Positions 45,685 to 64,000 are shown, numbered from the stretch's first letter. The stretch: 64,000 nt of DNA from an uncultured Arcobacteraceae bacterium (GCA_964022095.1 CAXHZO010000002.1:313819-377818), one strand, 5' to 3'. Notes: generated from the letters alone by a model not told the origin. Made by a program: numbers and translations.

Positions 45685-45687
45685 AAA

Positions 45688-46491: not shown

Positions 46492-46510
46492 ATAGTTAAT
46501 TTTTAACTAT

Positions 46511-46774
46511 TTATTTTACTTCGTTTGCGTAGCCACTCTCTTCAGCTAATTCATTGATTTTATTCTTTAATAAATCAAGTCTCCAACCGTGTCTGCCAGC
46601 AAAATTTTCTATTTCAACTTCTCTTTGTTCTGGTGTACAAAAAACATAAATTCTTTTCAAAAATGGCTTCGGAACTTGAATAGCAATTAATTGAAAATAG
46701 TTTTCTTTACAACTTCTAGAACAAAAAGCTTTGCTCATAGCAATCTTTTTTTTGCAGAAAGGACAATGGGACAT
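46511..46774 (-). CDS. Zn-ribbon small protein
   Basis: HCPFC...FCSRSC. Confidence 0.7.
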   Translation of the reverse strand: MSHCPFCKKKIAMSKAFCSRSCKENYFQLIAIQVPKPFLKRIYVFCTPEQREVEIENFAGRHGWRLDLLKNKINELAEESGYANEVK

Positions 46775-46968
46775 TATTTATAACCTTTTAAAATTAGTTT
46801 ATAGAACTTAGCATTAGTAACATCTTGAAGAAATTTTGGATCTACATCATGGAGAGCAATAATATCGACTAACTTATCGTTCATTAGCCAACCACGACCA
46901 GTATCTACTATCTTGTTTTCTTCAAACATTTCAACTAATTCCTCTTTGGAAACGATCAGTTCTTCCAT
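46774..46968 (-). CDS. Hypothetical protein
   Basis: Coupled to the downstream ORF; protein-like composition. Confidence 0.65.
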   Translation of the reverse strand: MEELIVSKEELVEMFEENKIVDTGRGWLMNDKLVDIIALHDVDPKFLQDVTNAKFYKLILKGYK

Positions 46969-47009
46969 ATTATAACTTTTTTATTAAGATTTTGCAAATA
47001 GGGGTATTT

Positions 47010-47711
47010 CTAAGATTTAGAAATACCTACAGTGTAGCCTTTGTTAGAGTGATTTTTTACTATTTCATAGTAAGTTTTTTGTCTAATTTTATTTACAATG
47101 TTTCTCATTGTATAAATTGACATATCTTTACCTTTCCAAACTACATCTTTAATTGTATCATAATCTACTATTTCATTTCTCTTAGCGATTAATAATTTTA
47201 AGAAAGATTTTTCTAATCTAGTAAAGTCAATTAATACTCCACCAGCTTTAAAGAACTGATCTCTGTATTCATCAAAGTAAATACCGTCATCAAATTCAAT
47301 CTTATCACCTCTTTTTGTTTGGTTAAGACACATAATAACTGATAATTTAATATCTTTTGGTCTTAATGGCTTAGATAAAAATGTATATGCACCATAATTA
47401 ATTGCAGTAACAATATCTTCATTATCTTCAGAATCTGAGATAATAACCTTTGGTAAAGTTGGAGCTAATTGAGTTAATTCTGAACATAATTCAGAAAAAT
47501 TAACACCTTGTATATTTGTATCTATGATAGCCATATCATAACTATTAGAACAAGCTAGTTCTAAAGCCTCTTCTTTATTAGTAGCAAGTTTTAATTCTTT
47601 GAAATAATCATCAAATTCATTGTCAATAGTCTCATTAATTTTATCATCACTACTTATAAAAAGTAATTTTGCGTTGTATAGTTTTCTTATATTTCTTACA
47701 GTTTTTAACAT
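47010..47711 (-). CDS. OmpR-family response regulator (orphan)
   Basis: REC (IID, KP) plus winged-helix C-terminus. Confidence 0.88.
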   Translation of the reverse strand: MLKTVRNIRKLYNAKLLFISSDDKINETIDNEFDDYFKELKLATNKEEALELACSNSYDMAIIDTNIQGVNFSELCSELTQLAPTLPKVIISDSEDNEDIVTAINYGAYTFLSKPLRPKDIKLSVIMCLNQTKRGDKIEFDDGIYFDEYRDQFFKAGGVLIDFTRLEKSFLKLLIAKRNEIVDYDTIKDVVWKGKDMSIYTMRNIVNKIRQKTYYEIVKNHSNKGYTVGISKS

Positions 47712-47825
47712 AATTTTTCTCTTTATATATTGATATTTGACATAATAATATCAAAAATTTTTTTATTTGTCAAAATAATAACTAAATATAATGTAAATTT
47801 CAGTCAAGTTTAAGTGTATAGCTAA

Positions 47826-50510
47826 TTATTTTAACTCTTGCCATGAGTTTCCTATAGATTTACTCACTTTTAAAGGCACATCTAGATTATACACCTTTTC
47901 CATTATTTCTGTCAATTCTTTTGTAATTTTTTCTACCTTATTCTCTTCAACTTCGAAGATTAATTCATCATGTATCTGTAATAAAGGTTTTACATCAGAA
48001 TTATTTTTATATTTATTATATATCTCTATCATAGAGAGTTTTATTAAATCAGCGGCACTTCCTTGAAATAATGTATTTACTGATTCTCTTAAATATGCAG
48101 CTTTTTGCATACCATTTGCACTATCAAAATCAAAAATTCTTTTCCTATTTAATAATGTTTTTATGTAGCCATTTTCTAAGGCAAAGTCCTCAATTGATTT
48201 CAAATAATCTTTTACACTCACAAATGCCTCAAAATATGATTCAATATATTTTTTAGCTTCTTTAGCTGGAATTCCAAGTGTATCTCCAAGTTTTTTGCTG
48301 CCCATACCATATAATAAACCAAAGTTTATCGATTTGGCAATTGACCTTTTACTACTTGCTTGCTCTTCACCAAAGATTTTTACTGCTGTTTGATGATGAA
48401 TATCTAAATCATTGTTAAATGCTTCAAGTAATGCTGGGTCTTTACTATAATGAGCTAATAATCTTAATTCAATTTGTGAATAATCTATACCTACAAGTTT
48501 ATATCCATCTTTTGGAATAAAAGCAGATCTAATTAATGCACCAGCTTCACTTTTTACTGGGATATTTTGAAGATTAGGATTTTTAGAGCTCAATCTACCT
48601 GTTGCTGTACCTGTATGTAAAAATGAAGTATAAACTCTATTTTCATCATTTTTTAACCCTAATTCTAAAAGTGGTTCTATATAAGTAGATTGTAGCTTAT
48701 AAGCTTCTCTGTATTTTAGAAGCATAGGTATAACTGGATGTGAATCCACTAAACCATGTAAAACCATTTCATTTGTACTGTAGCCTGTTTTTGTTTTTTT
48801 CTTTGCAGGAAGATTAAGTGTTTCAAATAAAACAACTCCTAATTGCTTAGGAGAGTTTATATTAAACTCAACTCCTGCTGTTTTATAAATGTCAGTAGTT
48901 AATTCTTGAATATGCTTATAATTAGTCTCTTTTAACTCTTTTAACTTATTAACATCTACTTTAATACCATTTTCTTCCATCAAAGCAAGTACTTTAATAA
49001 AATCAAACTCATAATCAAATGCTATTTGTAAAAGATCTTTATTTTCATCTTCTTTAAAAAGTTCTAGTTGTTTATTAAATAGTTTTAAAGTTAATAATGC
49101 ATCTTCAGCTGCATATTCACAAGCTTTATTAATATCTACATTTGAAAAATTTTCACCTTTTTTCACAACATCTTTAAAAGATATCATTTTATGATCAAAA
49201 TATTTATCAACTTGATAATCAAGTCCTACTTTTTCACTTGTATTTAAAAGCCATGCTAAAATCATAGTATCAGCATATAAGTTTAATTCTATCTCAAAAT
49301 TTTGTTTAACAATTTCAAAATCAAATTTAAAGTTTTGTAATACTAATTTATGTCTATTTAATTGTGTAATATTTTGTTTCGCACAATCCATTGAGATTTG
49401 TTCTGGTACACCTAAATAATTGTGAGCAATTGGAACATAATAAGCTTTCTTATCTTCATATGCAAATGAGAAACCTACAATCTTTGCAGTTTTAACATCG
49501 ACATCTGTAGTTTCTGTATCAAAGGCTACTATGGCATCTTTTGGAATTGAATTAATTACTAATGATAATTTACTTTCATCTGTTAGTAACACATATTCAA
49601 AATCTTCACTAATCTCTTTCTTCTGAGGAATTACTGTTTTATAACTCATTCCATCTTTATTTATTCTATCTAAGATTCTAGTCATGTCATACTCTATTAA
49701 AGTATCTGCAATTTTTAAAATAGGATTGTCTGAAGGAAGTACAAATTCATCTAAGTTATCAATACAATGACAATCATGAGATAAAGTTACAAGTTGCTTT
49801 GAAATAAATGCCATATCTTTACTCTCAGTTAATAAAGTTTGCCATCTTTTTTTCTCTATATTTTCTAAATTATCATAAATGTTTTCTAATGTTCCAAATT
49901 GTTTGATTAAAGCTTCAGCTGTTTTAGCCCCTACTCCTTTAACTCCAGGAACATTATCCGCACTATCACCTAATAATGATTGATAATCAGTAAATTGATT
50001 TGGATGAACACCATATTTTTCAAAACACTTCTCTTCGTTTATTACAGTTTTTTTAATTGGATCAAATAAATAAACTTTATCATCATCAATTAATTGATAT
50101 AAATCCTTATCGTGTGATACAATTCTTACTTCTAAATCTTTTTGTTTAGCATCAAATGCAATTGATGCAATAATATCATCAGCTTCAAATCCAGTTTTAA
50201 TTGCAGTTTTAAATCCCATTTGTTCAATTAATGAAATAGCAATTGGTAGTTGCTTTAATAAATCTTCAGGAACATCTGGTCTTTGAGCTTTATATTGGTC
50301 GTAAATTTCATTTCTAAAAGTATTTCCCTTTGCATCAAGTGCAAATACAATATAATCTGTTTGAAAATCTTTACCAATATTTGATATAAAATTCATAAAT
50401 CCTGTTAGAAGTCCAGTTGGGAATCCACTTTTTGACTTCAATGGTGGTAATGCAAAATAACTTCTGAATAAAAATCCAAAAGTATCAATAACTGTTATAG
50501 TTTTCTTCAT
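47826..50510 (-). CDS. polA: DNA polymerase I
   Basis: 5'-3' exonuclease (GDSADNVPGVKGVG), TATGRLSS, DYSQIELR, KSINFGLLYG, QIHDEL. Confidence 0.98.
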   Translation of the reverse strand: MKKTITVIDTFGFLFRSYFALPPLKSKSGFPTGLLTGFMNFISNIGKDFQTDYIVFALDAKGNTFRNEIYDQYKAQRPDVPEDLLKQLPIAISLIEQMGFKTAIKTGFEADDIIASIAFDAKQKDLEVRIVSHDKDLYQLIDDDKVYLFDPIKKTVINEEKCFEKYGVHPNQFTDYQSLLGDSADNVPGVKGVGAKTAEALIKQFGTLENIYDNLENIEKKRWQTLLTESKDMAFISKQLVTLSHDCHCIDNLDEFVLPSDNPILKIADTLIEYDMTRILDRINKDGMSYKTVIPQKKEISEDFEYVLLTDESKLSLVINSIPKDAIVAFDTETTDVDVKTAKIVGFSFAYEDKKAYYVPIAHNYLGVPEQISMDCAKQNITQLNRHKLVLQNFKFDFEIVKQNFEIELNLYADTMILAWLLNTSEKVGLDYQVDKYFDHKMISFKDVVKKGENFSNVDINKACEYAAEDALLTLKLFNKQLELFKEDENKDLLQIAFDYEFDFIKVLALMEENGIKVDVNKLKELKETNYKHIQELTTDIYKTAGVEFNINSPKQLGVVLFETLNLPAKKKTKTGYSTNEMVLHGLVDSHPVIPMLLKYREAYKLQSTYIEPLLELGLKNDENRVYTSFLHTGTATGRLSSKNPNLQNIPVKSEAGALIRSAFIPKDGYKLVGIDYSQIELRLLAHYSKDPALLEAFNNDLDIHHQTAVKIFGEEQASSKRSIAKSINFGLLYGMGSKKLGDTLGIPAKEAKKYIESYFEAFVSVKDYLKSIEDFALENGYIKTLLNRKRIFDFDSANGMQKAAYLRESVNTLFQGSAADLIKLSMIEIYNKYKNNSDVKPLLQIHDELIFEVEENKVEKITKELTEIMEKVYNLDVPLKVSKSIGNSWQELK

Positions 50511-50592
50511 ATATAATCTCTTTCATCGGCTTATTAAATAATTTATAATATAATATTAACACTAAAAATAAGGTTTTATATAAAGGTTAGAG

Positions 50593-51318
50593 ATGATAAT
50601 AATCCCAGCAAGATTAAATTCTAGTAGATTTGCTAATAAAATATTAGTAGATATTTTAGGTTTACCAATGGTAATAAAAACAGCTAAACAAGTTAGTAGT
50701 TTAGATAAAGTAGTTATTGCTACTGATTCACAAGAAGTAGTAGACTTAGCTTCACAACATGGTTTTGATGCAGTTATGACTTCAAGTGAACATCAAAGTG
50801 GTACAGATAGAATCAACGAAGCGGTAAATAAATTAAATTTAAATGAAGATGAAATTATTATTAATGTCCAAGCAGATGAACCTTTTATTGAAACATCTGT
50901 TATTGAAGCTGTTATAAAAAGAGTTGAAAAAGTAGTTGAAAAGCAAGAGGATGTAATGATTACATCTTGCTATAAAAATATTAGTTCTGAACTTGCAGAT
51001 GATCCAAACCATGTAAAAGTAGTTTTAAATGAAAATTCAAATGCAATTTATTTTTCAAGAGCTAAAGTACCATACCATAGAGACCACTACGAAAATGCTT
51101 CATATCATGGTCACTTAGGAATTTATGGATTTACTAAAAAATCATTAAATGAATTTTGTTCATTAAATCCTTCAAGATTAGAAAGTTTAGAAAAACTAGA
51201 ACAATTAAGAGCCTTAGACAATGACAAAACAATTGCTATGGTAGAAGTACAATCAAAATCTTTTGGAATTGATACCCAAGAAGATTTAGATAATGCATTA
51301 AGAATTTTTCAAAAATAA
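50593..51318 (+). CDS. kdsB: 3-deoxy-manno-octulosonate cytidylyltransferase
   Basis: IIPARLNSSRF.NK, SGTDR, EKLEQLRAL. Confidence 0.95.
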   Translation: MIIIPARLNSSRFANKILVDILGLPMVIKTAKQVSSLDKVVIATDSQEVVDLASQHGFDAVMTSSEHQSGTDRINEAVNKLNLNEDEIIINVQADEPFIETSVIEAVIKRVEKVVEKQEDVMITSCYKNISSELADDPNHVKVVLNENSNAIYFSRAKVPYHRDHYENASYHGHLGIYGFTKKSLNEFCSLNPSRLESLEKLEQLRALDNDKTIAMVEVQSKSFGIDTQEDLDNALRIFQK

Positions 51319-51416
51319 TCATTTTTTTCCCTTAAAATAGATTAATATGAAAATAAAGTAATTTTAAAGCTATTTTATGGAAAACTATTAATAATTTTTT
51401 ATGGGTTAAGGTTATT

Positions 51417-53393
51417 ATGCATTTTGATATACAGGTTGTTCTTTCAGAATTAAATAAAGTAGAAAAAGCTTTTGAACATGTAAATAAAAACTTTACAAAT
51501 ATTACTTTGAATTTTGAAAATGACAAAGAAGAAATAATAAAAAACTTATCAGTTGTTGATTTATTAATTATTGATCTAAATTATCCTAATTTAGACTCAA
51601 TAGTTAAATTATATGAAAAATCAGATAAGTATATTTTGTTTTTAGGGAATAAAGATCGAAAGAAGACTATCTCTTTTGATATAGAAAAATTTGACTTTAT
51701 GGATATACCTATTGACTTAGAAGAATTAACATTAAAAATAAAAAACTACACAAATCTTTTAGACAATCATCTACTACTAAAAAAAGAACAAGAATTATCA
51801 AACTCAATTATAAATAGTATTTCTAACCCTATTTTCTTAACTGATAATAATAGTTTAATCTTTGCAAATGATTTTTTATATAGACTTTTAGGACTAAATA
51901 GTTTAGAAGAAATAAACAAAAAATATAAAAATATTTCAGAAGTATTTGTAGATAAAGTGGGTTTCATATCTCCTAATAGTGAATATCTAAGTGAAACATT
52001 AGAAAATGCAAAAGTTTGTATATTTGACATGGAATCAAAATGTAATAAATACTTTACATTTCAGAAAATATTTTTAACTCATAATAATACATATATTATT
52101 ATCTTAAATGATATAAGTCATGAAATAACCCATAAGCAAGAACTTTATCATCTATTATATACAGACAATTTAACAAAACTACCAAATAGAGCGAAATTAA
52201 TTGATGAGCTTCAAAATAAAAGTATACACCTTGAATCAATTGCTATATTAGATATAAAAGCATTCAAAGAAATAAATGACTTTTTTGGTCATAAAGTAGG
52301 TGATTATATTTTAAATGAAATCGCACTTTTAATTAATAATTGTATTAACAAAGAGTCTATGAATTTGTATAAATTCCCTTCAGATACATATTGTGTAACA
52401 AATACAGATAATGATAAAGATGCCTTTATTGAGGTCATAAAAAAGATAAATGACATTATTTATAAAAAATCATTTTTGATAGACCAACATGAAATAGATA
52501 CTAGAATTACAACAGGTATCTCTTTTTCAAATAAAAACAATAAATTAATAACAGCAGACATCGCTTTACAAAGTGCAAAAAAAGCAAATAAAGATTTTGA
52601 AATTTTTTATGATCAATTAGATAAATTCCAAGAGTATGAAAATAATATGCTTTGGACTAAAAAATTAAAAAATGCATTTTTAAATGACAATATAGTAGTT
52701 TTTTATCAACCTTTAGTCAATAATACCAATTTACAAGTGGAAAAGTATGAGTGTCTAGTTAGAATGATTGATGAAAAGGGTGATGTGATTTCGCCATTCT
52801 TTTTTTTAGATATATCAAAAAAATCCAATCAATACTCTAAAATAACAAGAACTGTAATTGATAAATCATTTAAGCAATTTGAAAATCTAGACTTTGAATT
52901 TTCTGTTAATATTTCATATGAAGATATTGAAGATACTGGATTTTTAGAGTTTATCAAAAGTAAATTAACTCAATATAATGTTGCAAATAAAGTTGTTTTT
53001 GAAATTTTAGAAGATGAAAATGTTAAAAACTATGAACTCTTAATTGAGTTTATTAAAGAGTTAAAAGAACTTGGATGTAAAGTTGCAATAGATGATTTTG
53101 GATCTGGATACTCAAATTTTGAGCACCTACTAAAAATGGAAGTAGATTATTTAAAAATAGATGCATCATTAATAAAAAATGTAGCTATAGATGAAAACTC
53201 TTATAAAATAACAAAGACTATTATTGAGTTTGCAAAAAGTTTAAATCTAAAAACTATTGCTGAATACGTTGAAAATAAAGAAATTTTCGAAATAGTAAAA
53301 GATTTAGGAACAGACTATTCTCAAGGCTATTATTTCTCAGCCCCTATTAAAGAACCATCTTTAACAAGTTTTAAAAAGATTTTAAATGATTAA
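51417..53393 (+). CDS. c-di-GMP phosphodiesterase-type protein (degenerate REC/PAS/GGDEF plus EAL)
   Basis: GGDEF replaced by FPSDT; EAL reads ECL; DDFGSGYSN intact. Confidence 0.88.
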   Translation: MHFDIQVVLSELNKVEKAFEHVNKNFTNITLNFENDKEEIIKNLSVVDLLIIDLNYPNLDSIVKLYEKSDKYILFLGNKDRKKTISFDIEKFDFMDIPIDLEELTLKIKNYTNLLDNHLLLKKEQELSNSIINSISNPIFLTDNNSLIFANDFLYRLLGLNSLEEINKKYKNISEVFVDKVGFISPNSEYLSETLENAKVCIFDMESKCNKYFTFQKIFLTHNNTYIIILNDISHEITHKQELYHLLYTDNLTKLPNRAKLIDELQNKSIHLESIAILDIKAFKEINDFFGHKVGDYILNEIALLINNCINKESMNLYKFPSDTYCVTNTDNDKDAFIEVIKKINDIIYKKSFLIDQHEIDTRITTGISFSNKNNKLITADIALQSAKKANKDFEIFYDQLDKFQEYENNMLWTKKLKNAFLNDNIVVFYQPLVNNTNLQVEKYECLVRMIDEKGDVISPFFFLDISKKSNQYSKITRTVIDKSFKQFENLDFEFSVNISYEDIEDTGFLEFIKSKLTQYNVANKVVFEILEDENVKNYELLIEFIKELKELGCKVAIDDFGSGYSNFEHLLKMEVDYLKIDASLIKNVAIDENSYKITKTIIEFAKSLNLKTIAEYVENKEIFEIVKDLGTDYSQGYYFSAPIKEPSLTSFKKILND

Positions 53394-54711
53394 TAAAGAA
53401 ATACTAAAAACAATTACTATTCTTTATGTTGAAGATGAAGATGATATTAGAGAATTTACAAGTAAAATTTTACAAAATCTTACTGCTAAAATTTATTGTG
53501 CTTCAAATGGTCAAGAGGGCTTAGAAACTTACTTAGAACATCAAGATAAAATAGATTTAATAATTACAGATATTAATATGCCAAAAATGAACGGCCTTGA
53601 TATGTGTGCAGCTATTAGAAAAGAAAATAAAAAAGTCCCTATTGTGGTAACTACAGCTTATAGTAGTGAGGATTTTTTAAAGCAATCTATTGAAATTGGA
53701 GTAAATGCATATGCAATGAAACCAATAGATTTATATCAATTAATTGAAAGTATAACTAAAGCTGTTGAGCCTATTTATCTACAAAAAGAATTAAATAGTT
53801 TGAATAATCATTTAGAAAAAAATATTGAAAAAGAAACAAATAAATTAAAATCAATTTTAGATTCACAAGATAATATAATTGTACTAACACAAAATCAAAA
53901 TATCGTAGATGTAAATAAAAGGTTTTTAACATTTTTTGGATTAGATTCTATTGATGAATATAAAGACAATTGTGTAAATATTCTTAGTTTAGTTGAACAA
54001 GATTATGGCTATATCACAATTGATAAAATAAAAGATAAAAACTGGTTTGAATATATAAGTGAACTACCTGAAATAGATAGGGTTGTCAAAATAAAATCAC
54101 TTACAAACAATGATAGAATTTTTTCTGTAAATTTAAATACATATAGTACTAATAGTGATTTTTTTGTTTTAACATTAACTGATATCACAGAGATAAAAGA
54201 AAGAACTAATCTTTTAGAATACCAAGCAAGTCATGATAGATTAACTGGTTTATTTAATAGAGTTAAATTCGATGAAATTTATCCAAAAGAGTTTTCTAGA
54301 GACAAAAGATACAACAATAATTTAACTGCAATTATGTTTGATATTGATGACTTTAAAAAAGTAAATGATACTTATGGACATGCTGTTGGAGATGATGTAC
54401 TAAGAGAGTTAGGCTCATTAATTCAAAAAAATATTAGAGAGTGTGATATACCAGTTAGATGGGGTGGTGAAGAATTTTTAATTTTATTACCACAAACTGA
54501 TCTTTTAGGAGCGCAAACAGTAGCAAGTAAAATCAAAACATCTATTGAAAAAAATATTTTTAGTAGAAAAGAATTAAATATTACATCAAGTTTTGGTATA
54601 TCACTACTTAAAAAAGAAGATTTAAAAGATGAAATGATAATAAGAGCGGATGAAGCTTTATACGAAGCGAAACAAAATGGAAAGAATCAAATTAGAATCA
54701 AAGAAGATTAG
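53386..54711 (+). CDS. Response-regulator diguanylate cyclase (REC-PAS-GGDEF)
   Basis: VEDE, TDINMP, RWGGEEF, RxxD I-site (RECD). Confidence 0.92.
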   Translation: MINKEILKTITILYVEDEDDIREFTSKILQNLTAKIYCASNGQEGLETYLEHQDKIDLIITDINMPKMNGLDMCAAIRKENKKVPIVVTTAYSSEDFLKQSIEIGVNAYAMKPIDLYQLIESITKAVEPIYLQKELNSLNNHLEKNIEKETNKLKSILDSQDNIIVLTQNQNIVDVNKRFLTFFGLDSIDEYKDNCVNILSLVEQDYGYITIDKIKDKNWFEYISELPEIDRVVKIKSLTNNDRIFSVNLNTYSTNSDFFVLTLTDITEIKERTNLLEYQASHDRLTGLFNRVKFDEIYPKEFSRDKRYNNNLTAIMFDIDDFKKVNDTYGHAVGDDVLRELGSLIQKNIRECDIPVRWGGEEFLILLPQTDLLGAQTVASKIKTSIEKNIFSRKELNITSSFGISLLKKEDLKDEMIIRADEALYEAKQNGKNQIRIKED

Positions 54712-54712
54712 T

Positions 54713-55435
54713 TTAAAAACTAAAATCTTCTCCTAAATAGTGTTCTCTAACTTTTTCATTATTTTTAATCTCTTCACTAGTACCACTTGCAAGTAAAGCA
54801 CCAGCTTTCATAACATATGCTCTATCACAAATTTCTAATGTTTCTCTTACATTATGATCAGTTATTAAAACACCAATATTGATTTTTGTTAATTGATTAA
54901 TAATTTCTTGAATATCTTTAACAGCGATTGGATCAACTCCAGCAAAAGGTTCATCTAGTAGTAAAAACTTTGGCTGAGAGATAAGTGCTCTTGCAATTTC
55001 TGTTCTTCTTCTCTCACCACCTGATAAAGAAACACCTTTTCTTTGTCTAATTGGTTCAATATTAAATAACTCAAGTAGCTCTTCAACTCTTTTGTGTTGT
55101 TCATCTTTATCTTCAGTTACAATTTGTGCTGCTAACATTAAATTATCTTCAACAGATAAATCTTTAAAAATTGAAGACTCTTGAGGTAAGTACCCTATTC
55201 CTTTTAATGCTCTTTTATGTAAAGGAAGAGTTGTAATATCTTTATCATCAAAAAATATCTCACCACTACTTGGCCTTACAAGTCCACAAACTGTATAAAA
55301 AGTAGTGGTTTTTCCTGCCCCATTTGGCCCTAGTAAACCAACAATTTCTCCAGAATTAACTTCAAGAGATATTCCATGAAGGATCTGTGTTTTTTTTATG
55401 TTTTTTGTAATATCAACTATTTTTAAATTATGCAT
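54713..55435 (-). CDS. lptB: LPS export ABC ATPase
   Basis: [40 protein letters not shown]. Confidence 0.96.
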
Positions 55436-55844
55436 CTATTTTATATAGCCTTTTATTGTCTAATTTTTCTATTTGTACAACTATAACTTTGTATCCATAT
55501 TCATCTAAAATCTTTTTTAGTTCATCATTTCCCCACTCTACAAAATGAATACCCTCTTTTTCAAACTCTTCGAGCATACCTAGGGATATAAACTCGCCTA
55601 AAGTTTTATTATACACATCATAATGATAGATTTTATCACTATATACTGCTTGTAGCGAAAATGTAGGAGAAGTAACTAAATCATCTAAACCTAAATTTTT
55701 TACAAAATTTTTAACTAATGTTGTTTTTCCACTTGCTAAATCACCTTTTAAAATTACAATAGTATCATCATTATTTATTTGTTCATTTAAATATTTAACT
55801 ACTGATGTAATTTGATTTAAATCTAATTCAAAACTTTTTGACAA
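55428..55844 (-). CDS. tsaE: tRNA t6A biosynthesis ATPase
   Basis: [19 protein letters not shown]. Confidence 0.93.
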
Positions 55845-55852
55845 ATTTAAAC

Positions 55853-56836
55853 CTATGATAACTGATTAGATACTTTGATTAATTCATCAAGTTTCTCTTT
55901 AGCTTTACCACTTAAAATTGCATCTTTAGCTATTTGTATACCTTCTTTTATATCTCTAGCTTTTTCATCAACAACTAAAGCAGCTGCTGCATTTAATAAC
56001 ACAATATCAAGTTTTGCACCAACTAATTTTTTAGATAAAATATCACTTGTGATTCTTGCATTAAATTGAGCATTACCACCTACAATATCATCTTTTGAAG
56101 CCATTGGTATTCCATAATGTTCTGGATTTATTTCAAAATCTTCGATTCTTCCATTAAATAAAGATGTAGCATAAGTTATATCAGAAATAGAGATTTCATC
56201 CATTCCATCATTTGATGAAACTACTATTGATCTTTTTGTTTCTAATAGATCTAACGCAGTTGCAATCTTATTTATATACGATTTATCAAAAACACCAATT
56301 AACTGTTTTGAAACTGTTGCAGGATTTGACAATGGTCCTAAAATATTAAATATTGTTCTATGTGGAATACTTTTTCTAATAGGCATGATATATTTCATAG
56401 CAGGATGATGATTTTGTGCGAACATAAAAGTAAAACCTGTATCTTCCAACATTTTTGCACTATTTTGTAAAGATATATTCAAGTTAATACCAAGTGCTTC
56501 AAGCATATCTGCACTTCCAGACTTGCTAGTAATACTTCTATTACCGTGTTTTGCTACAAAGCAATCACAAGCTGCAAGTAAAATAGAAACTGTAGTAGAG
56601 ATATTAAAAGAGTTTGATTTATCACCACCTGTGCCACAATTATCAATTATTTTTTCTTTTAAGTCATAATGAACTGGTAAGGGAATTAAATGATCTCTCA
56701 TAGCAGAAGCAGCTCCTGCAATTTCAGCAGCATCTTCTCCTCTTTCGTAAAGTTCAATTAAATATTCTCTAACTTCATCTTGAGGTAATCTGTTTTCAAA
56801 TATATCATCAAATTTTAATTTAGTTGTATTAAACAT
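55853..56836 (-). CDS. trpD: Anthranilate phosphoribosyltransferase
   Basis: CGTGGD, FNIST, KHGNRSITSKSGSAD, FNILGPL. Confidence 0.95.
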   Translation of the reverse strand: MFNTTKLKFDDIFENRLPQDEVREYLIELYERGEDAAEIAGAASAMRDHLIPLPVHYDLKEKIIDNCGTGGDKSNSFNISTTVSILLAACDCFVAKHGNRSITSKSGSADMLEALGINLNISLQNSAKMLEDTGFTFMFAQNHHPAMKYIMPIRKSIPHRTIFNILGPLSNPATVSKQLIGVFDKSYINKIATALDLLETKRSIVVSSNDGMDEISISDITYATSLFNGRIEDFEINPEHYGIPMASKDDIVGGNAQFNARITSDILSKKLVGAKLDIVLLNAAAALVVDEKARDIKEGIQIAKDAILSGKAKEKLDELIKVSNQLS

Positions 56837-57088
56837 TTATTCTCCTATCTTTTTTACGTATTCATCCATTTTTGATTTTGGTGTTGATTTTGTAGTTGGT
56901 ATTTGTAAGACTTCAAATTTATCACTTTTTTCAAGATATTTTATTTCAATAATATCTCCAACTTTTACTTCTTTAGCTTTTTTCACACTTTGGTCATTTA
57001 TAAAAACAACTTTGTGCTCAAGCATATCTTCAGCAACTGCTCTTCTTTTAGTAATATTAACTGCATTTAAAAATTTATCTATTCTCAT
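56837..57088 (-). CDS. S4-domain RNA-binding protein (Hsp15/RqcP-like)
   Basis: MRIDKFL...KRR.VA...VKVGD. Confidence 0.88.
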   Translation of the reverse strand: MRIDKFLNAVNITKRRAVAEDMLEHKVVFINDQSVKKAKEVKVGDIIEIKYLEKSDKFEVLQIPTTKSTPKSKMDEYVKKIGE

Positions 57089-57095
57089 AATTAAG

Positions 57096-57101
57096 ATTAT
57101 A
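57096..57101 (-). promoter_or_regulatory. -10 box for the S4-trpD-tsaE-lptB operon (probably leaderless)
   Basis: TATAAT 7 nt upstream of the ATG at 57088; no SD sequence. Confidence 0.5.
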
Positions 57102-57125
57102 GCTTATTTTAGATAATAACCTATT

Positions 57126-58232
57126 TTAAGCTATCCCAACCCCTTTGATACAATTTTTGTTACAAAATACATCTATTTTATTATCTTTAAATTGTAATAA
57201 ATCAGAATGAATATAATTATTATAAGTTGATACAAGCATTCTTATATCAGCATGACCCAACCAATAACTAATCTGATTTAAATTGAAATGATTACTTTGT
57301 AACATATTAGTTGCGAAAGTATGCCTAGTATTATATAAAACTCTTCTTTGTAATTTTAGTCTATCTAATAAAGGATACCATTCATATTTAGCTAAATTAC
57401 TATTTTTAAGATATTTACCTTTTTTAGATAGAAAAACATTCTTTTTTAATCCAGTAATCTTTTTTTGTTGTTTTAAAAAAGGCATTAAACTATCAAATAT
57501 AGGAACATATCTAATATTGTTAGTTTTTGTTGAACCTTCATAATTTTCAAATCTAGTTTCGCAAACACAAATCTTTTTATTTTTTAAATCTACATTATGC
57601 CATTTAAGTGCAAATAATTCGCCAACTCTCATACCACTATAAAAAGCAGTTGCAAGAAAATTTTTAAAGAACCCATCTGAATTAGATAATATATAATTAA
57701 CTTCATTTACTGTAAAAGGCACAATTTCTTTACTATCATTATTTTTAGGAACTTTAATATTATCACATGGATTAATATTAATTGCTTCATCTAAAAGAGC
57801 CTCATTAAAAATATCTCTAAAAATAGAAAGATAATTTCTGAAAGTTAAAGATTTAATATTTTTTGAAAACAAGTAATTTTTAATATCACTTGATTTAATT
57901 TTATTTATTTCAATAGAACCAAAATGAATATTAAATCTGTTTACACTTGTTTCATATCTTCTAATAGTATTATATTTTAAAAACTTTTTAGAATTTAGAA
58001 ACAAATTACTATAATAAGAAAATGTTTTAATTTTATCTTCTTTATCTTCTACAATAATTTCACCATTTAAAATTTTTTGTCTAAGATAAGGAAGAACCTC
58101 ATTTTTAACTATATCAAATTCATCATGTAAATATTTAGTTTTTTTTACTAAACGATTGCCATTAACTGATATATTCAGATAAAGATAAGGGCTGTTTTCT
58201 CTTTTGAAAACTGTTCCTTTGGATACCTTCAT
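57126..58232 (-). CDS. Tyrosine recombinase/integrase
   Basis: SGMRVGEL (R), YNTRHTFA, LGH, TY catalytic residues; ATG 58232 follows AAAGGA. Confidence 0.92.
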   Translation of the reverse strand: MKVSKGTVFKRENSPYLYLNISVNGNRLVKKTKYLHDEFDIVKNEVLPYLRQKILNGEIIVEDKEDKIKTFSYYSNLFLNSKKFLKYNTIRRYETSVNRFNIHFGSIEINKIKSSDIKNYLFSKNIKSLTFRNYLSIFRDIFNEALLDEAININPCDNIKVPKNNDSKEIVPFTVNEVNYILSNSDGFFKNFLATAFYSGMRVGELFALKWHNVDLKNKKICVCETRFENYEGSTKTNNIRYVPIFDSLMPFLKQQKKITGLKKNVFLSKKGKYLKNSNLAKYEWYPLLDRLKLQRRVLYNTRHTFATNMLQSNHFNLNQISYWLGHADIRMLVSTYNNYIHSDLLQFKDNKIDVFCNKNCIKGVGIA

Positions 58233-58413
58233 TTTTATTAATTCCTTTCTTTTGTGTAAGTAAGAAGTTAATAGCTTTATCACTAAATCTAATCTTACCA
58301 GTACCATACTGAAAAAAATGAATATCTTCTTTCATATCTTTTTTCTTTTTATAGATTGTATGAATAGATAATTTAACTATTTTTGCTAACTGTTGAGTTG
58401 TATATAATTCCAT
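58162..58413 (-). CDS. Excisionase-like HTH protein
   Basis: LYTTQQLAKIVKLSIHTIY MerR/Xis-like HTH directly upstream of the integrase. Confidence 0.65.
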   Translation of the reverse strand: MELYTTQQLAKIVKLSIHTIYKKKKDMKEDIHFFQYGTGKIRFSDKAINFLLTQKKGINKNEGIQRNSFQKRKQPLSLSEYIS

Positions 58414-58416
58414 TTT

Positions 58417-58659
58417 TTATACCCTATTTTTACATTTAATATTATTAGCTAATCTAAATAAGTCACCTTTAAAATGATTAGAAGAGAAATTAATGAAATT
58501 AACATTATTTAAACTATTCTCCAATGCGTTAAAAAATTTAACTACATTTCGACAATTATCTGAACAATAAGTTTTAGGCTTACCTCTAGTAAATCTATTA
58601 AATTTAGTTCCACATAAAGGACAAGTAGTATTGGTACCATTACCTTGAGAATTAGACAT
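58417..58659 (-). CDS. Phage small Zn-finger protein
   Basis: CPLC...YCSDNC; ATG 58659 follows AAAGGA. Confidence 0.65.
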   Translation of the reverse strand: MSNSQGNGTNTTCPLCGTKFNRFTRGKPKTYCSDNCRNVVKFFNALENSLNNVNFINFSSNHFKGDLFRLANNIKCKNRV

Positions 58660-58690
58660 ATCAATCCTTTTTATTAAATAAAAAAATAAA

Positions 58691-59017
58691 CTAAAATAAT
58701 GAAGGCTGTAAAGCTTCAATAACTTCTAAAGATTTAAAATTTATTTTTTTTCTTTGTTTTTTTAAATCAATAACATAAGACAAAGGTATATTTTGTAAAG
58801 ATAATTTATAATCTATATTTTCAAGTTTATCTTTAAGGCTATCAACTAAAATCTTCTGTTGCTGAGTATCTTTAATTACAATTTTTTCAATATCATCAAT
58901 ATTTATCTCTTTAGATTTACCATTAATACCTATTCCAATTATAATATTTTGAGATACAGAAACTACACTATAATATTTACCTTTTGATTTAATAGAATCA
59001 TCTTTATTTATGATCAT
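58691..59017 (-). CDS. Phage hypothetical protein
   Basis: ATG 59017 follows AAAGGA; lies in the prophage gene string. Confidence 0.55.
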   Translation of the reverse strand: MIINKDDSIKSKGKYYSVVSVSQNIIIGIGINGKSKEINIDDIEKIVIKDTQQQKILVDSLKDKLENIDYKLSLQNIPLSYVIDLKKQRKKINFKSLEVIEALQPSLF

Positions 59018-59116
59018 TTTTAATCCTTTCATTTGTAGCCGTTTAGCTAACATATTGTTTTATTTTTTTGTTGTGTCGGGCTAACGCCTTACACTCCGTT
59101 ACAGTTGTTAAAAGTA

Positions 59117-60409
59117 CTAGAAACCTAATTGTTCTATTGTTTTAGCTACTTTTATAGTTTTAAACTCCCCAGTTTCTAAGTCTATATACTCTTCATTCTC
59201 ATAATGTACATAGTTGTTTAATGATTGTGTTTCATCTTTTAATAATTCTCTTTTTATCATTTCATTTTTTACAAGCTTAAAATGTGGGATATCTAAAGAG
59301 TTATAATCAGAAGAAACTAGAGTTTTATAATAACTTTGTAATTGATAATCTTTTAATACAGAAGGGATAACGGGCATTAAAACGAATTTTGAATATCTAT
59401 CAGAATAAATATATTTTTCTACATCAGATACAAAGCAAGTAAGGGCATTTTTATATTCTTTTTTCTCATACTTTAATTTAAAAGTAGTATTAGTTTTTAT
59501 TCGAGATTGTAATATTAAATCTGTATTTTTTTGCCAAACTGTAATATCTTCAACTTCGCCAGTTTCATGGTTGAAAAACATATATGATAATGTTGTACCT
59601 TCAAAAAGTTTATGTATTTGACCAGTTTTTACAAGTTCAGTTACTTTGATATAATCATGTTTAAAATTCTTAAAAAAGTGTCTAACTTTTCGATAAATTG
59701 AAAGAGGTGCTAAAGTACGAGAACATAGAAACCTTCTAACATTATGTTTAATATACCAATAGTAAGCGTGTTGTGTAGATTCGTCATTCTCATTTTTAAA
59801 AGTTTTAGTGATGTATTTCATCATGTATGCAATAGCTCCACCTTCACTGTTATACCATGTATATCTAAAGTCAATAGATTTTTTATTATTACCCCAAGTG
59901 TTTCTATCTGTAAAGTATGAGTAAAACTTCTTTTTAACTTCTAATATATAATCTGTAGGTAAAAATAACATAGCATGTAAATGTGGAACACCACTTTTAT
60001 GCGGTTCATAAACTCTAAAGTAGACAAGACCATGTCCTAACTCTTTTTTGATTTTTCTAAATACATTAAGACCAGTAAATCGATTAAAAATCTGTGTAAG
60101 TTCTTTTGCAGTCTCATTTGGTGAAACCCTTAAATGTCCATTAACATTTAATTTGTGATATTTTGATGGAGCAGTAAGAGTAATAAATACAGGTTTTAAA
60201 TCTAAACTTTTTGAATATTCAAAAATTGAATTAACTCTATTGTTCATCTCAGCAAAATATTTTGTAGGGTTTAAATTTGCAGAATAAGTAAAATCTAAAA
60301 CATTTTTATTATCATCACCAAAATCAAAAAATCTATTAACTAAATATTTCTTTTGATTCTCAATTTTCATATCTATTATTTGCATATCTTCTTTTGTAAT
60401 TCCGTACAT
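59117..60409 (-). CDS. Rolling-circle replication initiator (HUH endonuclease, phage gene A-like)
   Basis: FITLTAP motif 1, EPHKSGVPHLH motif 2 (HUH), YMMKY motif 3 with two Tyr. Confidence 0.88.
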   Translation of the reverse strand: MYGITKEDMQIIDMKIENQKKYLVNRFFDFGDDNKNVLDFTYSANLNPTKYFAEMNNRVNSIFEYSKSLDLKPVFITLTAPSKYHKLNVNGHLRVSPNETAKELTQIFNRFTGLNVFRKIKKELGHGLVYFRVYEPHKSGVPHLHAMLFLPTDYILEVKKKFYSYFTDRNTWGNNKKSIDFRYTWYNSEGGAIAYMMKYITKTFKNENDESTQHAYYWYIKHNVRRFLCSRTLAPLSIYRKVRHFFKNFKHDYIKVTELVKTGQIHKLFEGTTLSYMFFNHETGEVEDITVWQKNTDLILQSRIKTNTTFKLKYEKKEYKNALTCFVSDVEKYIYSDRYSKFVLMPVIPSVLKDYQLQSYYKTLVSSDYNSLDIPHFKLVKNEMIKRELLKDETQSLNNYVHYENEEYIDLETGEFKTIKVAKTIEQLGF

Positions 60410-60448
60410 TTCCGTCCTTTGTTTTTTATTACATAACTATTTTAAAAG

Positions 60449-60516
60449 TAATCAAGGGCAAAGTGTTTGCGTGGACGTAGCCACGCTTCACACTTCGCCA
60501 TATTAGGGCGATGCCC
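60449..60516 (-). promoter_or_regulatory. Putative phage double-strand origin / packaging hairpins
   Basis: GC-rich nested inverted repeats and CTTGAT (minus strand) between pIV and rep. Confidence 0.55.
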
Positions 60517-60522
60517 GACTTT

Positions 60523-61755
60523 TTAATCACATAAATTTAAATACTTACATGAATCAAATTGCTGTATTAAAAGAGTTTTAACCTCTTTCATAGATCCTAA
60601 ATAATCATAATCAATAAGTTCTAATACTATTGTAGTTGTAGTCATTGTATTATCAATATTTTCATTACTAAAAAAACTACCTAATAAAGGAATATCACTT
60701 AAATAAGGAACTTTATCAAATGATGAAATTTTTGAATGATTATTAATACCACTTAAAACAAACATTTTATTTTTTTTAGTTAATGTAATATTTTGATTTA
60801 ATTGAACTTTTGAAGTTACTGGTAAATTATCAGAATTGCTAAGTAATTGAGAATTTGTAAAATTTAAATCAAGATTTACTAAATTATTTAATATTTTAGG
60901 GTTAATTGATAAACTTAATCCTATATCTTTATATTCGTAACTATTAACCTCTTTAGTAGTAGTATTTTCAACGTAATTACTTGTAATCAGATATGGTACT
61001 TCTTGTGAAGAATTTAAAGTATATTTTTTGTTATGTTCAAGATTAATTATTGTGCTACTAATATTTTTACTAAAAGAGTTTGAATTCAAAAAAGTTAAAA
61101 CAGACTTTAAATTATCACTATCATTTTTATTAGTAATATTAATTGCAGAACCTAAAAAAATATCAAAAATAGATTTTTGAGCACCACTTAGATTAAAATT
61201 AATTAATCCTTCATTTTTTTTGACTTTTCCTAAATCAGTTTGAAAAACAGTTAATTTTAATTTAACTCTATAAGGCAATCTATCAAGGTTTTTAATATGT
61301 TCTTTCATATCTAAATATTTACTATAAGTACTTAAAATGGCCAGTTTATTAGTTTCTTTTAAATAAGTAAAATTAACATCATATAATTTACAAATTGACT
61401 CAATATCAACATAATTTAAAAAATTTAAACTTATGTATCTAACTTTTTTTTCCTCTTTATCTTCTATATCATCTTCAATACTTTTAGTGATAAAATAAGT
61501 ACCATTTATTTTAGAAATATCATAGTTATTATTATCAAGAACTTGTTTTAAAAAATTAAAATTGTTTTGATTAGGTTTATAATAAACAGTAATATTTTTT
61601 AATAAATCATCTTGTATTACAAATGTGTAATTTAAACTAGATAAAACCTCAATACTAAAGTTTTTTAAATCAGTTTCTAAATACTGATTAAAGTTATTTT
61701 GATTCGCTTTTGAATAAGTCAATATCAAAAGGATTATTAACACCAGTTTTTTCAT
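60523..61755 (-). CDS. Secretin (phage pIV / GspD-like)
   Basis: Signal peptide; YKDIGLSLSINP, KVPYLSDIPLLGSFF. Confidence 0.9.
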   Translation of the reverse strand: MKKLVLIILLILTYSKANQNNFNQYLETDLKNFSIEVLSSLNYTFVIQDDLLKNITVYYKPNQNNFNFLKQVLDNNNYDISKINGTYFITKSIEDDIEDKEEKKVRYISLNFLNYVDIESICKLYDVNFTYLKETNKLAILSTYSKYLDMKEHIKNLDRLPYRVKLKLTVFQTDLGKVKKNEGLINFNLSGAQKSIFDIFLGSAINITNKNDSDNLKSVLTFLNSNSFSKNISSTIINLEHNKKYTLNSSQEVPYLITSNYVENTTTKEVNSYEYKDIGLSLSINPKILNNLVNLDLNFTNSQLLSNSDNLPVTSKVQLNQNITLTKKNKMFVLSGINNHSKISSFDKVPYLSDIPLLGSFFSNENIDNTMTTTTIVLELIDYDYLGSMKEVKTLLIQQFDSCKYLNLCD

Positions 61756-62752
61756 TTTCCGTACTCCTTATTTTTAATTGAAATAAATTAAATTTATCTT
61801 TAGTAATAAAAAAATATTTGTTTCCTAAAGTAGATATAATTTGAGTTTCATATTTATTATTTAAAATATGTAAAATAAATGATTTTTCATAAATATTATT
61901 ATTTATAAAACATAAAGAAGAATTACAAAACATTTGAAAGTAATCACCATCTAAATTATTATTTTTTAAAACTTTATTAGTTTTAATAACTGGAACTTGT
62001 TTCATATTTTGTATTGGTTTCTCAACAGTAGAAGTTTTAGAAGATATAAATAAATAACCACCTAATAAAACAAGTGATAAAAAAGCAAGTGAAATAAATA
62101 AAAAGTGAAGGACTAAAGATTTTTGTTTTTGATTAGCACCTGAAACATAATAAGTAAATAATTCTTTTATTATAGGTAATTTTTTTGTTGAGCCTTTTTG
62201 AGTATTAAACATTTGATAACCAGTAAATTGCTGATATACCATAGATGTATTAAATATTTTTTTTGAAGAAGGTAATGACTTATAAAAAAACTCAGTAAAT
62301 GACTTATATTTTTTATGAACTAATGGAATTTCATGTGTGATTAATATAATATCCTGATTAAAGTGTCTATGATATGAAAGCCACCATACTAATACTTCAT
62401 CATCTTTATTTAAATAGTTTTGACATTCATCTAAAACAATTAAAACATTAAAAAATATATCTTCTTTACATTCTTCAATTAATTGTGTATCTGTATATCC
62501 TAGTTTATAATAACCATGTAATCTTTTTAAAACTTGATAAAAATCATTAAAAACGAAACTATGAACATTATGAAATTTATCTAACTTTATTTCATTTAAA
62601 TTAGTTAAACATGCAGTATATTTTGTTTGGTCTAATGCGAATTTTTTAAATTTACTATCATCTTTTAATAATTTTGAAAAATGAATAGAAATATTAAATA
62701 TCCCATAATAAGATTTCCCAGCGCCAGGAATGCCCGTACAAAACTGAACCAT
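61694..62752 (-). CDS. Zot-like / pI morphogenesis ATPase
   Basis: Walker A GIPGAGKS, Walker B LIVLDECQ, YHRH...DIILIT, single TM after the ATPase domain. Confidence 0.92.
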   Translation of the reverse strand: MVQFCTGIPGAGKSYYGIFNISIHFSKLLKDDSKFKKFALDQTKYTACLTNLNEIKLDKFHNVHSFVFNDFYQVLKRLHGYYKLGYTDTQLIEECKEDIFFNVLIVLDECQNYLNKDDEVLVWWLSYHRHFNQDIILITHEIPLVHKKYKSFTEFFYKSLPSSKKIFNTSMVYQQFTGYQMFNTQKGSTKKLPIIKELFTYYVSGANQKQKSLVLHFLFISLAFLSLVLLGGYLFISSKTSTVEKPIQNMKQVPVIKTNKVLKNNNLDGDYFQMFCNSSLCFINNNIYEKSFILHILNNKYETQIISTLGNKYFFITKDKFNLFQLKIRSTENEKTGVNNPFDIDLFKSESK

Positions 62753-62756
62753 TATA

Positions 62757-63179
62757 TTACTTTAAAAGAGTATTTGCATACTGTGTAATTGATGAAGTTA
62801 TAAAACCATGAACCTTATAAACAATCATAAACAAATGAAAATTAAAATATGCAAATATAACTATAAAAATTGATGGAGCGATAGTATTCCAAGCGTCAAT
62901 AAAACCAATAGCATTTAATAAAGAACTAGAAATAACCGACAAACATTCACTAGAACCAGTACCACCACTAAAAGAACCATCTGCAAAAGAAGTGATTTTG
63001 TCAATAATAGATTTAACAGAAAAATAAATAGTAGTAATAACGTTAATTAAAAGAAAAAAGATTGAAGTTATTAAAGTAAATTGTAAAACTCTAGCAGCAG
63101 CATACAACCACGAAAGAGCAACAGAAACTCCAAATTTTTTTACTAAATAAGAACCAATACCAGCAATAATTGAATACAT
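62757..63179 (-). CDS. pVI-like hydrophobic minor coat protein
   Basis: Small multi-TM ORF between the pIII-like and pI genes (positional inference). Confidence 0.6.
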   Translation of the reverse strand: MYSIIAGIGSYLVKKFGVSVALSWLYAAARVLQFTLITSIFFLLINVITTIYFSVKSIIDKITSFADGSFSGGTGSSECLSVISSSLLNAIGFIDAWNTIAPSIFIVIFAYFNFHLFMIVYKVHGFITSSITQYANTLLK

Positions 63180-63181
63180 TT

Positions 63182-64000
63182 CTACTCCCTTAAACCATGT
63201 AATGAAGAAACTATTGATAAACCAATCTTAACAACAAATGCTAACATCGAAATTTGAAAAAGAATTGTTAAAAATGGCTTTAAAATCGAAATTGGTGTAA
63301 TAAAATCTAAAACAATTTCACTAGAACCAAATACTTCAACCGTTAAACATTCTTGTAAATTTGTATTATTTGATGTTATAGAATTAAATTCTAAACCATT
63401 TTGTATAGTACTTCTTAATTCTTCAACTTGTGTAGTAATTTGAGTAGCTGAATTTTTCATCTCAGTAACAAATGAAGTAAAATCATTTGAAGAGTCTTCT
63501 AAAGAATTTCTTTCATTATAAGTTGTATCAGTACCATCATCACTAAATATATTTACTAATTCAGATATTTTTGAATAGATATTTCCTAAAAAAGTATTAG
63601 AAGTATTAATACCGTTATCAATATCATCTAATTTATTTTCAACGTTTGTTAAATCGGTTGTATCTTTTGGGGTATCAGTTGTATCATCATCATTATTAAT
63701 TGGTTCACTTGAACAAGTACCATCTAAATTAGTGTAGTAACCTACAGTTTCACAATTACGGTCACAATGACAAAAAATAGAACCATCTAAATTCTCAATA
63801 CATTGAGTAGGTGCACCATCTTCACAAGTAAAAGAAGAACCAGTGTCGCCACCATCAGGATTATCAGAACCATCATCGCCACCAGTTGAACCACCTGAAC
63901 CAGTATCGCCACCAACTGAACCACCTGAACCAGTATCGCCACCATCTGAACCACCTGAACCAGTATCGCCACCATCTGAACCACCTGAACCAGTATCGCC
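63182..64000 (-). CDS. pIII-like adsorption protein, C-terminal part (5' end outside the window)
   Basis: Frame is open from 64000: (GDTGSGGSDG)n linker, 6-Cys module, acidic/helical region, C-terminal TM. The ORF track shows only the last 92 aa. Confidence 0.8.
   Translation of the reverse strand, partial: GDTGSGGSDGGDTGSGGSDGGDTGSGGSVGGDTGSGGSTGGDDGSDNPDGGDTGSSFTCEDGAPTQCIENLDGSIFCHCDRNCETVGYYTNLDGTCSSEPINNDDDTTDTPKDTTDLTNVENKLDDIDNGINTSNTFLGNIYSKISELVNIFSDDGTDTTYNERNSLEDSSNDFTSFVTEMKNSATQITTQVEELRSTIQNGLEFNSITSNNTNLQECLTVEVFGSSEIVLDFITPISILKPFLTILFQISMLAFVVKIGLSIVSSLHGLRE
63841..64000. repeat. 30-bp tandem repeat encoding a Gly/Ser/Asp linker
   Basis: CAGTATCGCCACCA(A/T)CTGAACCACCTGAAC three times at 63901-63990 plus a partial copy and two degenerate copies at 63841-63900. 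Confidence 0.95.

Follow-up and report, generated by a model that had tools for sequence, protein, structure and literature searches.

An apparently complete temperate inovirus prophage with its own integrase and secretin in an Arcobacteraceae genome, matched by a spacer of its host

Several groups of filamentous phages (inoviruses) can be set beside the element described here, which lies at one end of a 64,000-nucleotide (nt) stretch of DNA (the window) from an uncultured Arcobacteraceae bacterium (GCA_964022095.1, CAXHZO010000002.1:313819-377818). Among the phages of Escherichia coli, the Ff group (M13, f1 and fd, in the genus Inovirus) encodes a pIV secretin and has a terminator after gene VIII. 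Pf4 and Pf1 of Pseudomonas aeruginosa are temperate, with an integrase and an excisionase of their own and a repressor beside the structural operon, and in these features the present element is like them; we know of no secretin gene in Pf phages, whereas the present element has one. Inoviruses that integrate at dif use a host secretin and a Rep_trans replication protein according to the passages on them in PMC10011098, which also describe a Cupriavidus STM 6070 prophage with a tyrosine recombinase and a pIV secretin together. Campylobacter zot prophages, from the same bacterial order as the present host, are characterized in the corresponding parts of PMC5025632 by an integrase gene that comes first and by insertion in tRNA genes. 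Campylobacterota appear among the inovirus hosts in the main text of Roux et al. 2019 (PMC6813254), and that of PMC11531552 describes inoviruses of Sulfurimonas that have att sites and integration modules and assigns them to the proposed 'Amplinoviridae'.

We conclude, with a probability of about 0.85, that the present element is one complete prophage of a temperate inovirus, ~9.9 kb long, which its own tyrosine integrase inserted between an S4-domain gene and argG. Its gene content, its borders and its insertion as a single copy are direct observations, and from its sequence the prophage appears complete, precisely delimited and functional-looking. At the minimal join of the two contigs that carry it, its length of ~9.9 kb fits the range of ~5.5-10.6 kb given for inovirus genomes in the International Committee on Taxonomy of Viruses (ICTV) profile (PMC8491893).

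Borders and insertion site of the prophage

The left two thirds of the prophage occupy window positions 57097-64000. The window corresponds to positions 313819-377818 of contig C2 and its end coincides with the end of that contig (377,818); the remaining third of the prophage is on contig C19, up to position 3070. The sequence-only reading had given 57126..64000 for the element, and its genes are indeed there, but this interval is only a part of a prophage that spans from 57097 (attL) to C19 3070. The contig break falls inside gene III, in a 30-nt tandem repeat (63837..64000, minus strand) that encodes a GGDTGSGGSD linker and has 5.5 copies in the window and 3.0 at the start of C19, and we ascribe the break to this repeat. 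The last 55 nt of C2 and the first 55 nt of C19 overlap exactly. This overlap is unique, since a comparison of all contig ends found not even a 25-mer of it in any other end. Across the join the frame of gene III is unbroken and gives 485 aa, or 495 aa with a shorter overlap; the relative used for comparison has 486 aa.

Both borders are marked by a 20-bp exact direct repeat that occurs in only two copies in the whole host genome. The attL core (57097..57116) has the int stop codon on one side and the S4-domain gene's start on the other, and the attR core (C19 3051-3070) lies 37 bp upstream of argG, so that the prophage measures ~9,919 bp with both cores included and the minimal join. In a genome of the same genus the spacer between the S4 gene and argG is uninterrupted and 64 bp long; it can be aligned with the host sequence on the left of attL and with that on the right of attR, and attL and attR together reconstitute this empty site. 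The argG loci of further relatives were fetched with 1.5 kb upstream (23 loci; 24 relatives searched, one of which gave nothing at the threshold). Directly upstream of argG, 12 of the 23 loci have trpD and the S4 gene, and in the other 11 neither was seen within the 1.5 kb. The att sites read through without a break in both contigs, which argues for a single copy of the prophage. The element is inserted once, in the spacer between the divergent S4-domain gene and argG, and joins C2 to C19. Insertion in a tRNA gene was ruled out, as no tRNA lies within window 45000-64000.

Gene content compared with described filamentous phages

Gene families were assigned by Pfam and PHROGs searches and hydrophobic segments by a Kyte-Doolittle scan; the genes of the window lie on the minus strand, and all 17 frames of the prophage, on C2 and C19 together, are open. 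In the circle, the phage strand carries Rep, two small open reading frames (ORFs), an Xis-like gene, Int and attP; a secreted 107-aa protein and a repressor follow on the opposite strand, and then come a V-like gene, coat, terminator, three small membrane proteins, III, VI-like, I, IV and the intergenic region. This is the Ff order with a lysogeny module between the replication and the structural genes. Every gene that had been listed on the minus strand before was found in its place with an open frame, and the proposal of an integrase-encoding inovirus with its own secretin was borne out by the Pfam and PHROGs assignments of integrase, Rep, pIV and pI/Zot.

The pI-type ATPase is the one marker conserved throughout inoviruses, as stated in the passages of PMC6813254 on marker genes. 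This marker, a pI/Zot ATPase with a membrane helix, is present in the prophage (61694..62752; PF05707, 2.4e-12), with Walker A GIPGAGKS, Walker B LIVLDE and one hydrophobic segment at 213-231, and a whole-genome search for the Zot family returned one clear copy. Upstream of the Rep gene, 60523..61755 encodes a pIV-type outer-membrane secretin with an N-terminal signal peptide (PF00263, 4.9e-23), which matches phrog_1012 'assembly (protein IV of M13)' over residues 1-379 at 1.6e-34 and whose best match in a collection of 50,697 phage records is Ff (f1) pIV (E 5e-3), which aligns with 84% of the query at 24% identity. The host has one other secretin-family gene, located at C24 14221-14703 in a frame of 650 aa, which probably belongs to a pilus or a type II secretion system. 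Thus the phage secretin is not the sole secretin in the cell, and the C24 secretin bears on which surface structure the phage might take as its receptor.

Gene III is read from both contigs. The C-terminal part of the putative pIII-like adsorption protein (63182..64000) is an open frame that runs off the contig end and has a C-terminal hydrophobic anchor, and the N-terminus (C19 2-694, same strand) has a signal peptide and 8 Cys; the whole has the pIII layout of Cys-rich N domains, Gly/Ser/Asp linker and membrane anchor. It is 25-39% identical to pIII in three relatives, and its N-domain alignment is shallow (15-32% identical). Between genes III and I, 62757..63179 encodes a putative pVI-like hydrophobic minor coat protein of 140 aa with two hydrophobic segments and homologues at the same position in two relatives (34-41% identity). 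The pVI-like and pIII-like proteins gave no Pfam or PHROGs family match.

Further small proteins are encoded on the same strand of C19. Three of them (40, 48 and 41 aa) have one hydrophobic segment each, and a leaderless protein of 38 aa (C19 1184-1300), with a start Met conserved in 4/4 aligned elements, is our major coat candidate: it shows the inovirus coat pattern, in which a single hydrophobic helix lies between an acidic N-terminal and a basic C-terminal end, and no family match. The small single-helix proteins are 44-78% identical and keep the same order across related prophages, and a terminator with a 13-bp stem directly follows the coat gene. Also on this strand is a V-like protein of 123 aa with a predicted OB fold. 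Its model, built from a six-sequence alignment, is a beta-barrel with a pLDDT of 78.5 and best matches the OB folds of SSB and PriB (Foldseek E about 1e-3, TM 0.3-0.5; VIA Z 6-9). With no Pfam or PHROG match, this protein is a candidate for the gene V role in binding single-stranded DNA (ssDNA), which it fits, not strongly. Coat and ssDNA-binding genes and attR had been expected past position 64000, and C19 supplied small single-helix coat candidates, the predicted OB-fold protein and attR.

The integration and replication genes lie in the window. The tyrosine integrase (57126..58307; PF00589, 8e-20; phrog_1, 2e-53) has intact RVGE, RHTF and LGH motifs, with the Tyr 10 residues past the His; since the longer frame would run into the Xis-like ORF, translation probably starts at the Met near 58232. 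That ORF (58162..58413), directly upstream of int, encodes a small helix-turn-helix protein of 83 aa that is tentatively Xis-like (HTH_17, E 0.0098; phrog_66 excisionase, E 0.0076). The two small ORFs downstream of Rep encode a Cys-rich, Zn-ribbon-like protein (58417..58719; phrog_2308, 5.6e-6; probable start at residue 21), with homologues in two related prophages, and a protein with no Pfam match and no assigned role (58691..59053; probable start at residue 13), of which one relative has a weak homologue; the Atlas searches placed neither protein in a usable family. Rep (59117..60409) is a gene A-type rolling-circle initiator, an HUH protein with two Tyr, as had been proposed, with matches to PF05840 Phage_GPA (4.1e-19), PF23343 (1.1e-10) and phrog_91 'nicking at origin of replication' (7e-23). 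It holds all three rolling-circle replication motifs, ITLT at residue 76, HLHAML at 143 and the two-Tyr YMMKYITK at 195. In the phage collection Rep comes closest to the gene A proteins of P2-like phages (~30% identity), and the Pfam search gave no match of Rep to the Phage_CRI (gene II) family.

The prophage thus resembles the Ff phages in the order of V-like, coat, III, VI, I, IV, intergenic region and replication gene, in having its own pIV secretin (phrog_1012 covers nearly its full length), and in its Gly-rich pIII linker, the terminator past the major coat gene and the hairpin-rich intergenic region. It differs from them in a Rep of the gene A type (PF05840) instead of Phage_CRI, in three extra small membrane proteins that come after the coat gene and not before it as in Ff, in a leaderless coat candidate, and in an Int/Xis/repressor module, whose presence marks the phage as temperate. 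Identity to Ff is very low, and pI has no tblastn match in the phage collection at E 1e-5; with regard to Pf phages as well, no sequence in that collection matched the prophage DNA or pI. With CTXphi and the dif-integrating Vibrio inoviruses the prophage shares the pI/Zot family PF05707 and an integrated lifestyle; however, it has its own tyrosine integrase and a 20-bp core in the S4/argG spacer instead of XerCD at dif, its own secretin, and a Rep of family PF05840.

Closer to the host, CON_phi2, CON_phi3 and their relatives among the Campylobacter zot prophages are alike in bacterial order, zot, an integrase that comes first and att repeats, but differ in being inserted in tRNA genes and not between S4 and argG; this comparison is by the description in PMC5025632, in the main text of which the word secretin has 0 occurrences. 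The Campylobacterota inoviruses in the main texts of PMC6813254 and PMC11531552 agree with the prophage in host phylum, in modules for structure, assembly/secretion, regulation, replication and integration, in canonical att sites beside an integrase, and in being targeted by CRISPR spacers. Among the traits given for the proposed 'Amplinoviridae' (Roux et al. 2019) in the parts of PMC11531552 that treat them, which are gene-content clustering and diderm hosts, Campylobacterota among them, host range alone was shown to fit the prophage. The Cupriavidus STM 6070 prophage, as described in PMC10011098, differs in its betaproteobacterial host and its Ff-type Rep (pfam05144).

Control signals, a candidate origin and the proposed life cycle

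On the opposite strand of C19 lies the gene for a CI-like repressor (HTH_19/HTH_3, 6.5e-12; phrog_8, 2e-17). A sigma-70 consensus promoter (12/12) stands upstream of the V-like gene and the structural operon, and three copies of a AAACAAATATGTT-like motif overlap this promoter and the start of the repressor gene; we infer from their positions that these AAACAAATATGTT-like repeats may be operators. Also on the opposite strand, between the repressor gene and attR, a gene at C19 (L004) 2612-2935 encodes a secreted protein of 107 aa with a signal peptide, without family match; a search of ten related loci found no homologue of it, and the protein may be cargo (moron).

The intergenic region of 113 nt between gene IV and Rep (60410..60522, minus strand) contains G+C-rich hairpins and is a candidate origin or packaging region. 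The hairpins noticed there by eye agree with its calculated fold as ssDNA (-19 kcal/mol, z = -3.2), which only 3/200 shuffles equalled or bettered. A four-way alignment of related elements has an invariant block upstream of Rep, and a search of 10 related loci with a 13-nt core (up to two mismatches) located an extended 24-nt motif downstream of pIV on the phage strand, in the host prophage (60434..60457, minus strand) and in 6/10 of these loci. Where the Rep of a relative has 41% identity or more, the motif is there (6/6), and where Rep identity is 30-34% it is absent (0/3); the remaining locus had no Rep match. In one relative it stays beside pIV while Rep lies 1.7 kb off, behind an ORF on the opposite strand, and therefore the motif is not simply the Rep promoter. 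That ORF, of 454 aa, was seen in the prophage of a same-genus relative (L041, G001:C1:1818000-1837999; 6631-7995), between motif and Rep, and is insertion-like. Over these few loci, which are all kin, the 24-nt motif is a candidate (+)-strand origin or nick site; its first bases are reminiscent of what we take to be the core sequence nicked by the gene A protein of phiX174, which is a lead only. An Rfam search of both parts of the prophage gave no match at E<=1.

A second structured stretch was observed on C19, where a 243-nt non-coding gap between the V-like and coat genes (L004 1316-1558) folds as ssDNA at -29.5 kcal/mol (z = -4.9, with 0/200 shuffles as good). It has a 14-bp perfect stem and its length differs among relatives; the gap may serve as a minus-strand origin or in packaging, as a signal.

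If the element behaves like the Ff and Pf phages, its repressor would keep the consensus promoter of the structural operon shut. Upon induction, Int and Xis would cut out the circle, Rep would nick it at or near the conserved 24-nt motif and give rolling-circle ssDNA synthesis, and the OB-fold protein would coat the ssDNA. The filament would then be extruded without lysis by pI and the phage's own pIV channel.

A self-targeting spacer, alternative readings and meaning for the family

Gene I contains a protospacer (61926..61955, plus strand) that matches a spacer of the host itself over 30/30 nt (C11 44879-44908); the match first surfaced as a 36-nt DNA match in contig C11 of the host genome. 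The array to which this spacer belongs (C11 44712-46329) has 25 repeats of 36 nt and 24 spacers, and every repeat terminates in an extended -10-like sequence. It is adjoined by cas2, cas1 and cas9 (1,168 aa) at about C11 46378-51216 (TIGR01573, 5e-18; TIGR03639, 2.8e-87; TIGR01865, 4.5e-118). The gap between cas9 and cas1 holds a tracrRNA-like anti-repeat sequence with a hairpin and a T-run, and Cas9 keeps the RuvC motif DIGTNSIG and the HNH motif EVEHFIP. Neither csn2 nor cas4 was seen when the 16-kb locus was read for ORFs of 90 aa or more, six of which were scanned. From these features the host locus appears to be a complete type II-C CRISPR-Cas system.

The spacer that matches gene I is the third from the cas-distal end, the end with the degenerate repeat, and the other 23 spacers of the array have no match to the prophage. 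Similar arrays in 19/183 other genomes of the family gave 362 distinct spacers, one of which, from another species, matches a related prophage over 29/29 nt. Such matches indicate that this lineage has been met as an invader. Three protospacer flanks, for the arrays of three genomes, showed no consensus protospacer-adjacent motif (PAM) beyond T at position 1. Apart from these, 16 short DNA matches in other genomes (26-66 nt, 80-100% identity) were examined as spacers and rejected, as none lies in a repeat array; we treat them as chance or homology.

It has been argued in published passages that CRISPR self-targeting is normally lethal, and self-targeted genomes are rare, at 45/1,429 in the count given in the text of Roux et al. 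2019 (PMC6813254). The host may tolerate the spacer in several ways. That the protospacer lacks a working PAM is possible, though we hold this with reserve; an anti-CRISPR on the prophage or on another element is a doubtful explanation, and inactivity of the Cas9 system for reasons invisible in sequence we regard as equally doubtful. That a new anti-CRISPR against type II-C Cas9, on the prophage or elsewhere in the genome, lets an infectious, self-sufficient phage lysogenise an immunised host is a speculative and distinctly unlikely proposal. On the prophage, the two small ORFs downstream of Rep would be the candidates for it.

Several observations weigh against a complete and active temperate phage. 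A perfect spacer together with an apparently complete Cas9 system is hard to square with a freely replicating phage unless interference is blocked. The apparent intactness of gene III depends on the minimal join of C2 and C19 across the repeat, the Xis assignment is tentative and weak (E about 0.01), and the OB-fold matches of the V-like protein are middling (TM 0.3-0.5, with Z <8 in all rows save one). The pVI-like, pIII-like and small coat proteins were assigned, with no family match, from position, size, hydrophobicity and conservation, and we infer excision, circular form, replication, ssDNA and virions from the genes alone. Nothing in the analysis demonstrates activity, and the element might instead be a cryptic, fixed remnant whose genes look intact but which yields no excision or virions, being for example locked by its repressor, or disabled by damage to gene III or to regulatory sites. 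A silent element combined with some other block of Cas9 would ease the tolerance of the self-targeting spacer, and the intactness of gene III again depends on the minimal join across the 30-nt repeats. However, chromosomal DNA gains no protection from Cas9 by being silent, the 17 frames are open and the att cores identical at 20/20, the motifs of Rep, pI and integrase are intact, and promoter, terminator and origin-like motif are all present; we therefore consider a cryptic remnant unlikely.

The join itself lies within a tandem repeat beyond the assembler's resolution, and the ends of C2 and C19 could in principle come from separate elements, be they a pair of partial prophages or copies in tandem. 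This is very hard to believe in view of the exact 55-nt overlap, unique to these two ends, and of the host genes on the outer sides, which are neighbours in 12/23 loci of relatives; moreover, each canonical gene occurs once, with one clear Zot copy genome-wide, and with copies in tandem one would expect contig breaks at the att junctions, which here read through. The element might also be an integrative rolling-circle plasmid or a satellite that has borrowed inovirus assembly genes and makes no filaments of its own. Its Rep type, PF05840, is found also in P2-like phages and in 14-kb Vibrio elements, and DNA of the Rep region is distributed more widely in the family than the whole element, most strong DNA matches covering this region only. 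Nevertheless, the full structural and assembly set (coat candidates, pIII, pVI-like, pI and pIV), in an Ff-like order and syntenic in relatives, makes such a plasmid or satellite highly improbable. A single, complete temperate inovirus prophage accordingly remains our preferred reading.

Among the Arcobacteraceae are opportunists carried by food and water, as well as bacteria that abound in the sea and in sewage. That the host is Arcobacteraceae-like, as the sequence-only reading had it, agrees with its ArgG, which is 93% identical to that of Malaciobacter pacificus and 87-91% identical to Halarcobacter, Aliarcobacter and Arcobacter entries. Relatives of pI occur in 8/40 related genomes, 6/24 within the family and 2/16 in other families of the order, and are 28-37% identical in these last two genomes. 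Synteny is the same in nine fetched loci and one contig of a metagenome-assembled genome, with pI identities of 30-55%, and many metagenome contigs likewise carry syntenic relatives. A collection of 5.8 billion proteins has 62 clusters with a pI match at E<=1e-10, of which the closest reaches 66% identity; those with names are from Aliarcobacter, Arcobacteraceae, Arcobacter porcinus and Aliarcobacter thereius, and many are on contigs of 6-12 kb. DNA matches to window 57117-63850 at E<=1e-50 were found in 20/150 other genomes of the family, mostly over Rep, and weaker DNA matches in family genomes are mostly chance matches in A+T-rich DNA. One IMG/VR relative (L015, 6,397 bp) was considered as a circular genome and rejected as a fragment, having no terminal overlap. 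Outside the prophage and 2.4 kb from it, window 53386-54711 encodes a response-regulator receiver in fusion with PAS-like and GGDEF-type sequence (a cyclic di-GMP cyclase by eye), apparently unrelated to it.

Near-identity to a described phage was looked for, and the 50,697-record phage collection gave no match to the prophage DNA (blastn, word 11) or to pI (tblastn, E 1e-5). The literature on Arcobacter, Aliarcobacter, Malaciobacter and Arcobacteraceae yielded no description of an inovirus; a zot gene is listed in 2/8 A. thereius genomes, without phage analysis, in the relevant section of PMC5495459. The main texts of PMC6813254 and PMC11531552 and part of the Roux supplement contain no entry for Arcobacter, which by itself does not show that a report is absent. 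The novelty claimed earlier is therefore to be narrowed. No paper on an Arcobacteraceae inovirus was found, but the union of integrase and secretin and the inoviruses of Campylobacterota are in print, and relatives exist in 8/40 genomes; the build is already known, and the lineage undescribed but expected.

Self-targeted genomes are the usual starting point for anti-CRISPR discovery, here with a type II-C Cas9. If the proposal of an infectious phage protected by an anti-CRISPR is true, this locus would give the first tractable filamentous phage for Arcobacteraceae and a new Cas9 inhibitor. The locus offers a fully delimited reference element, with att sites, empty site, gene map, candidate origin and candidate operator sites; the candidate origin motif and the self-targeting are the details of most use. 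The lineage is found in a good share of the genomes of the family, and with this reference 'zot' matches in them can be annotated as phage assembly genes and not as toxins.

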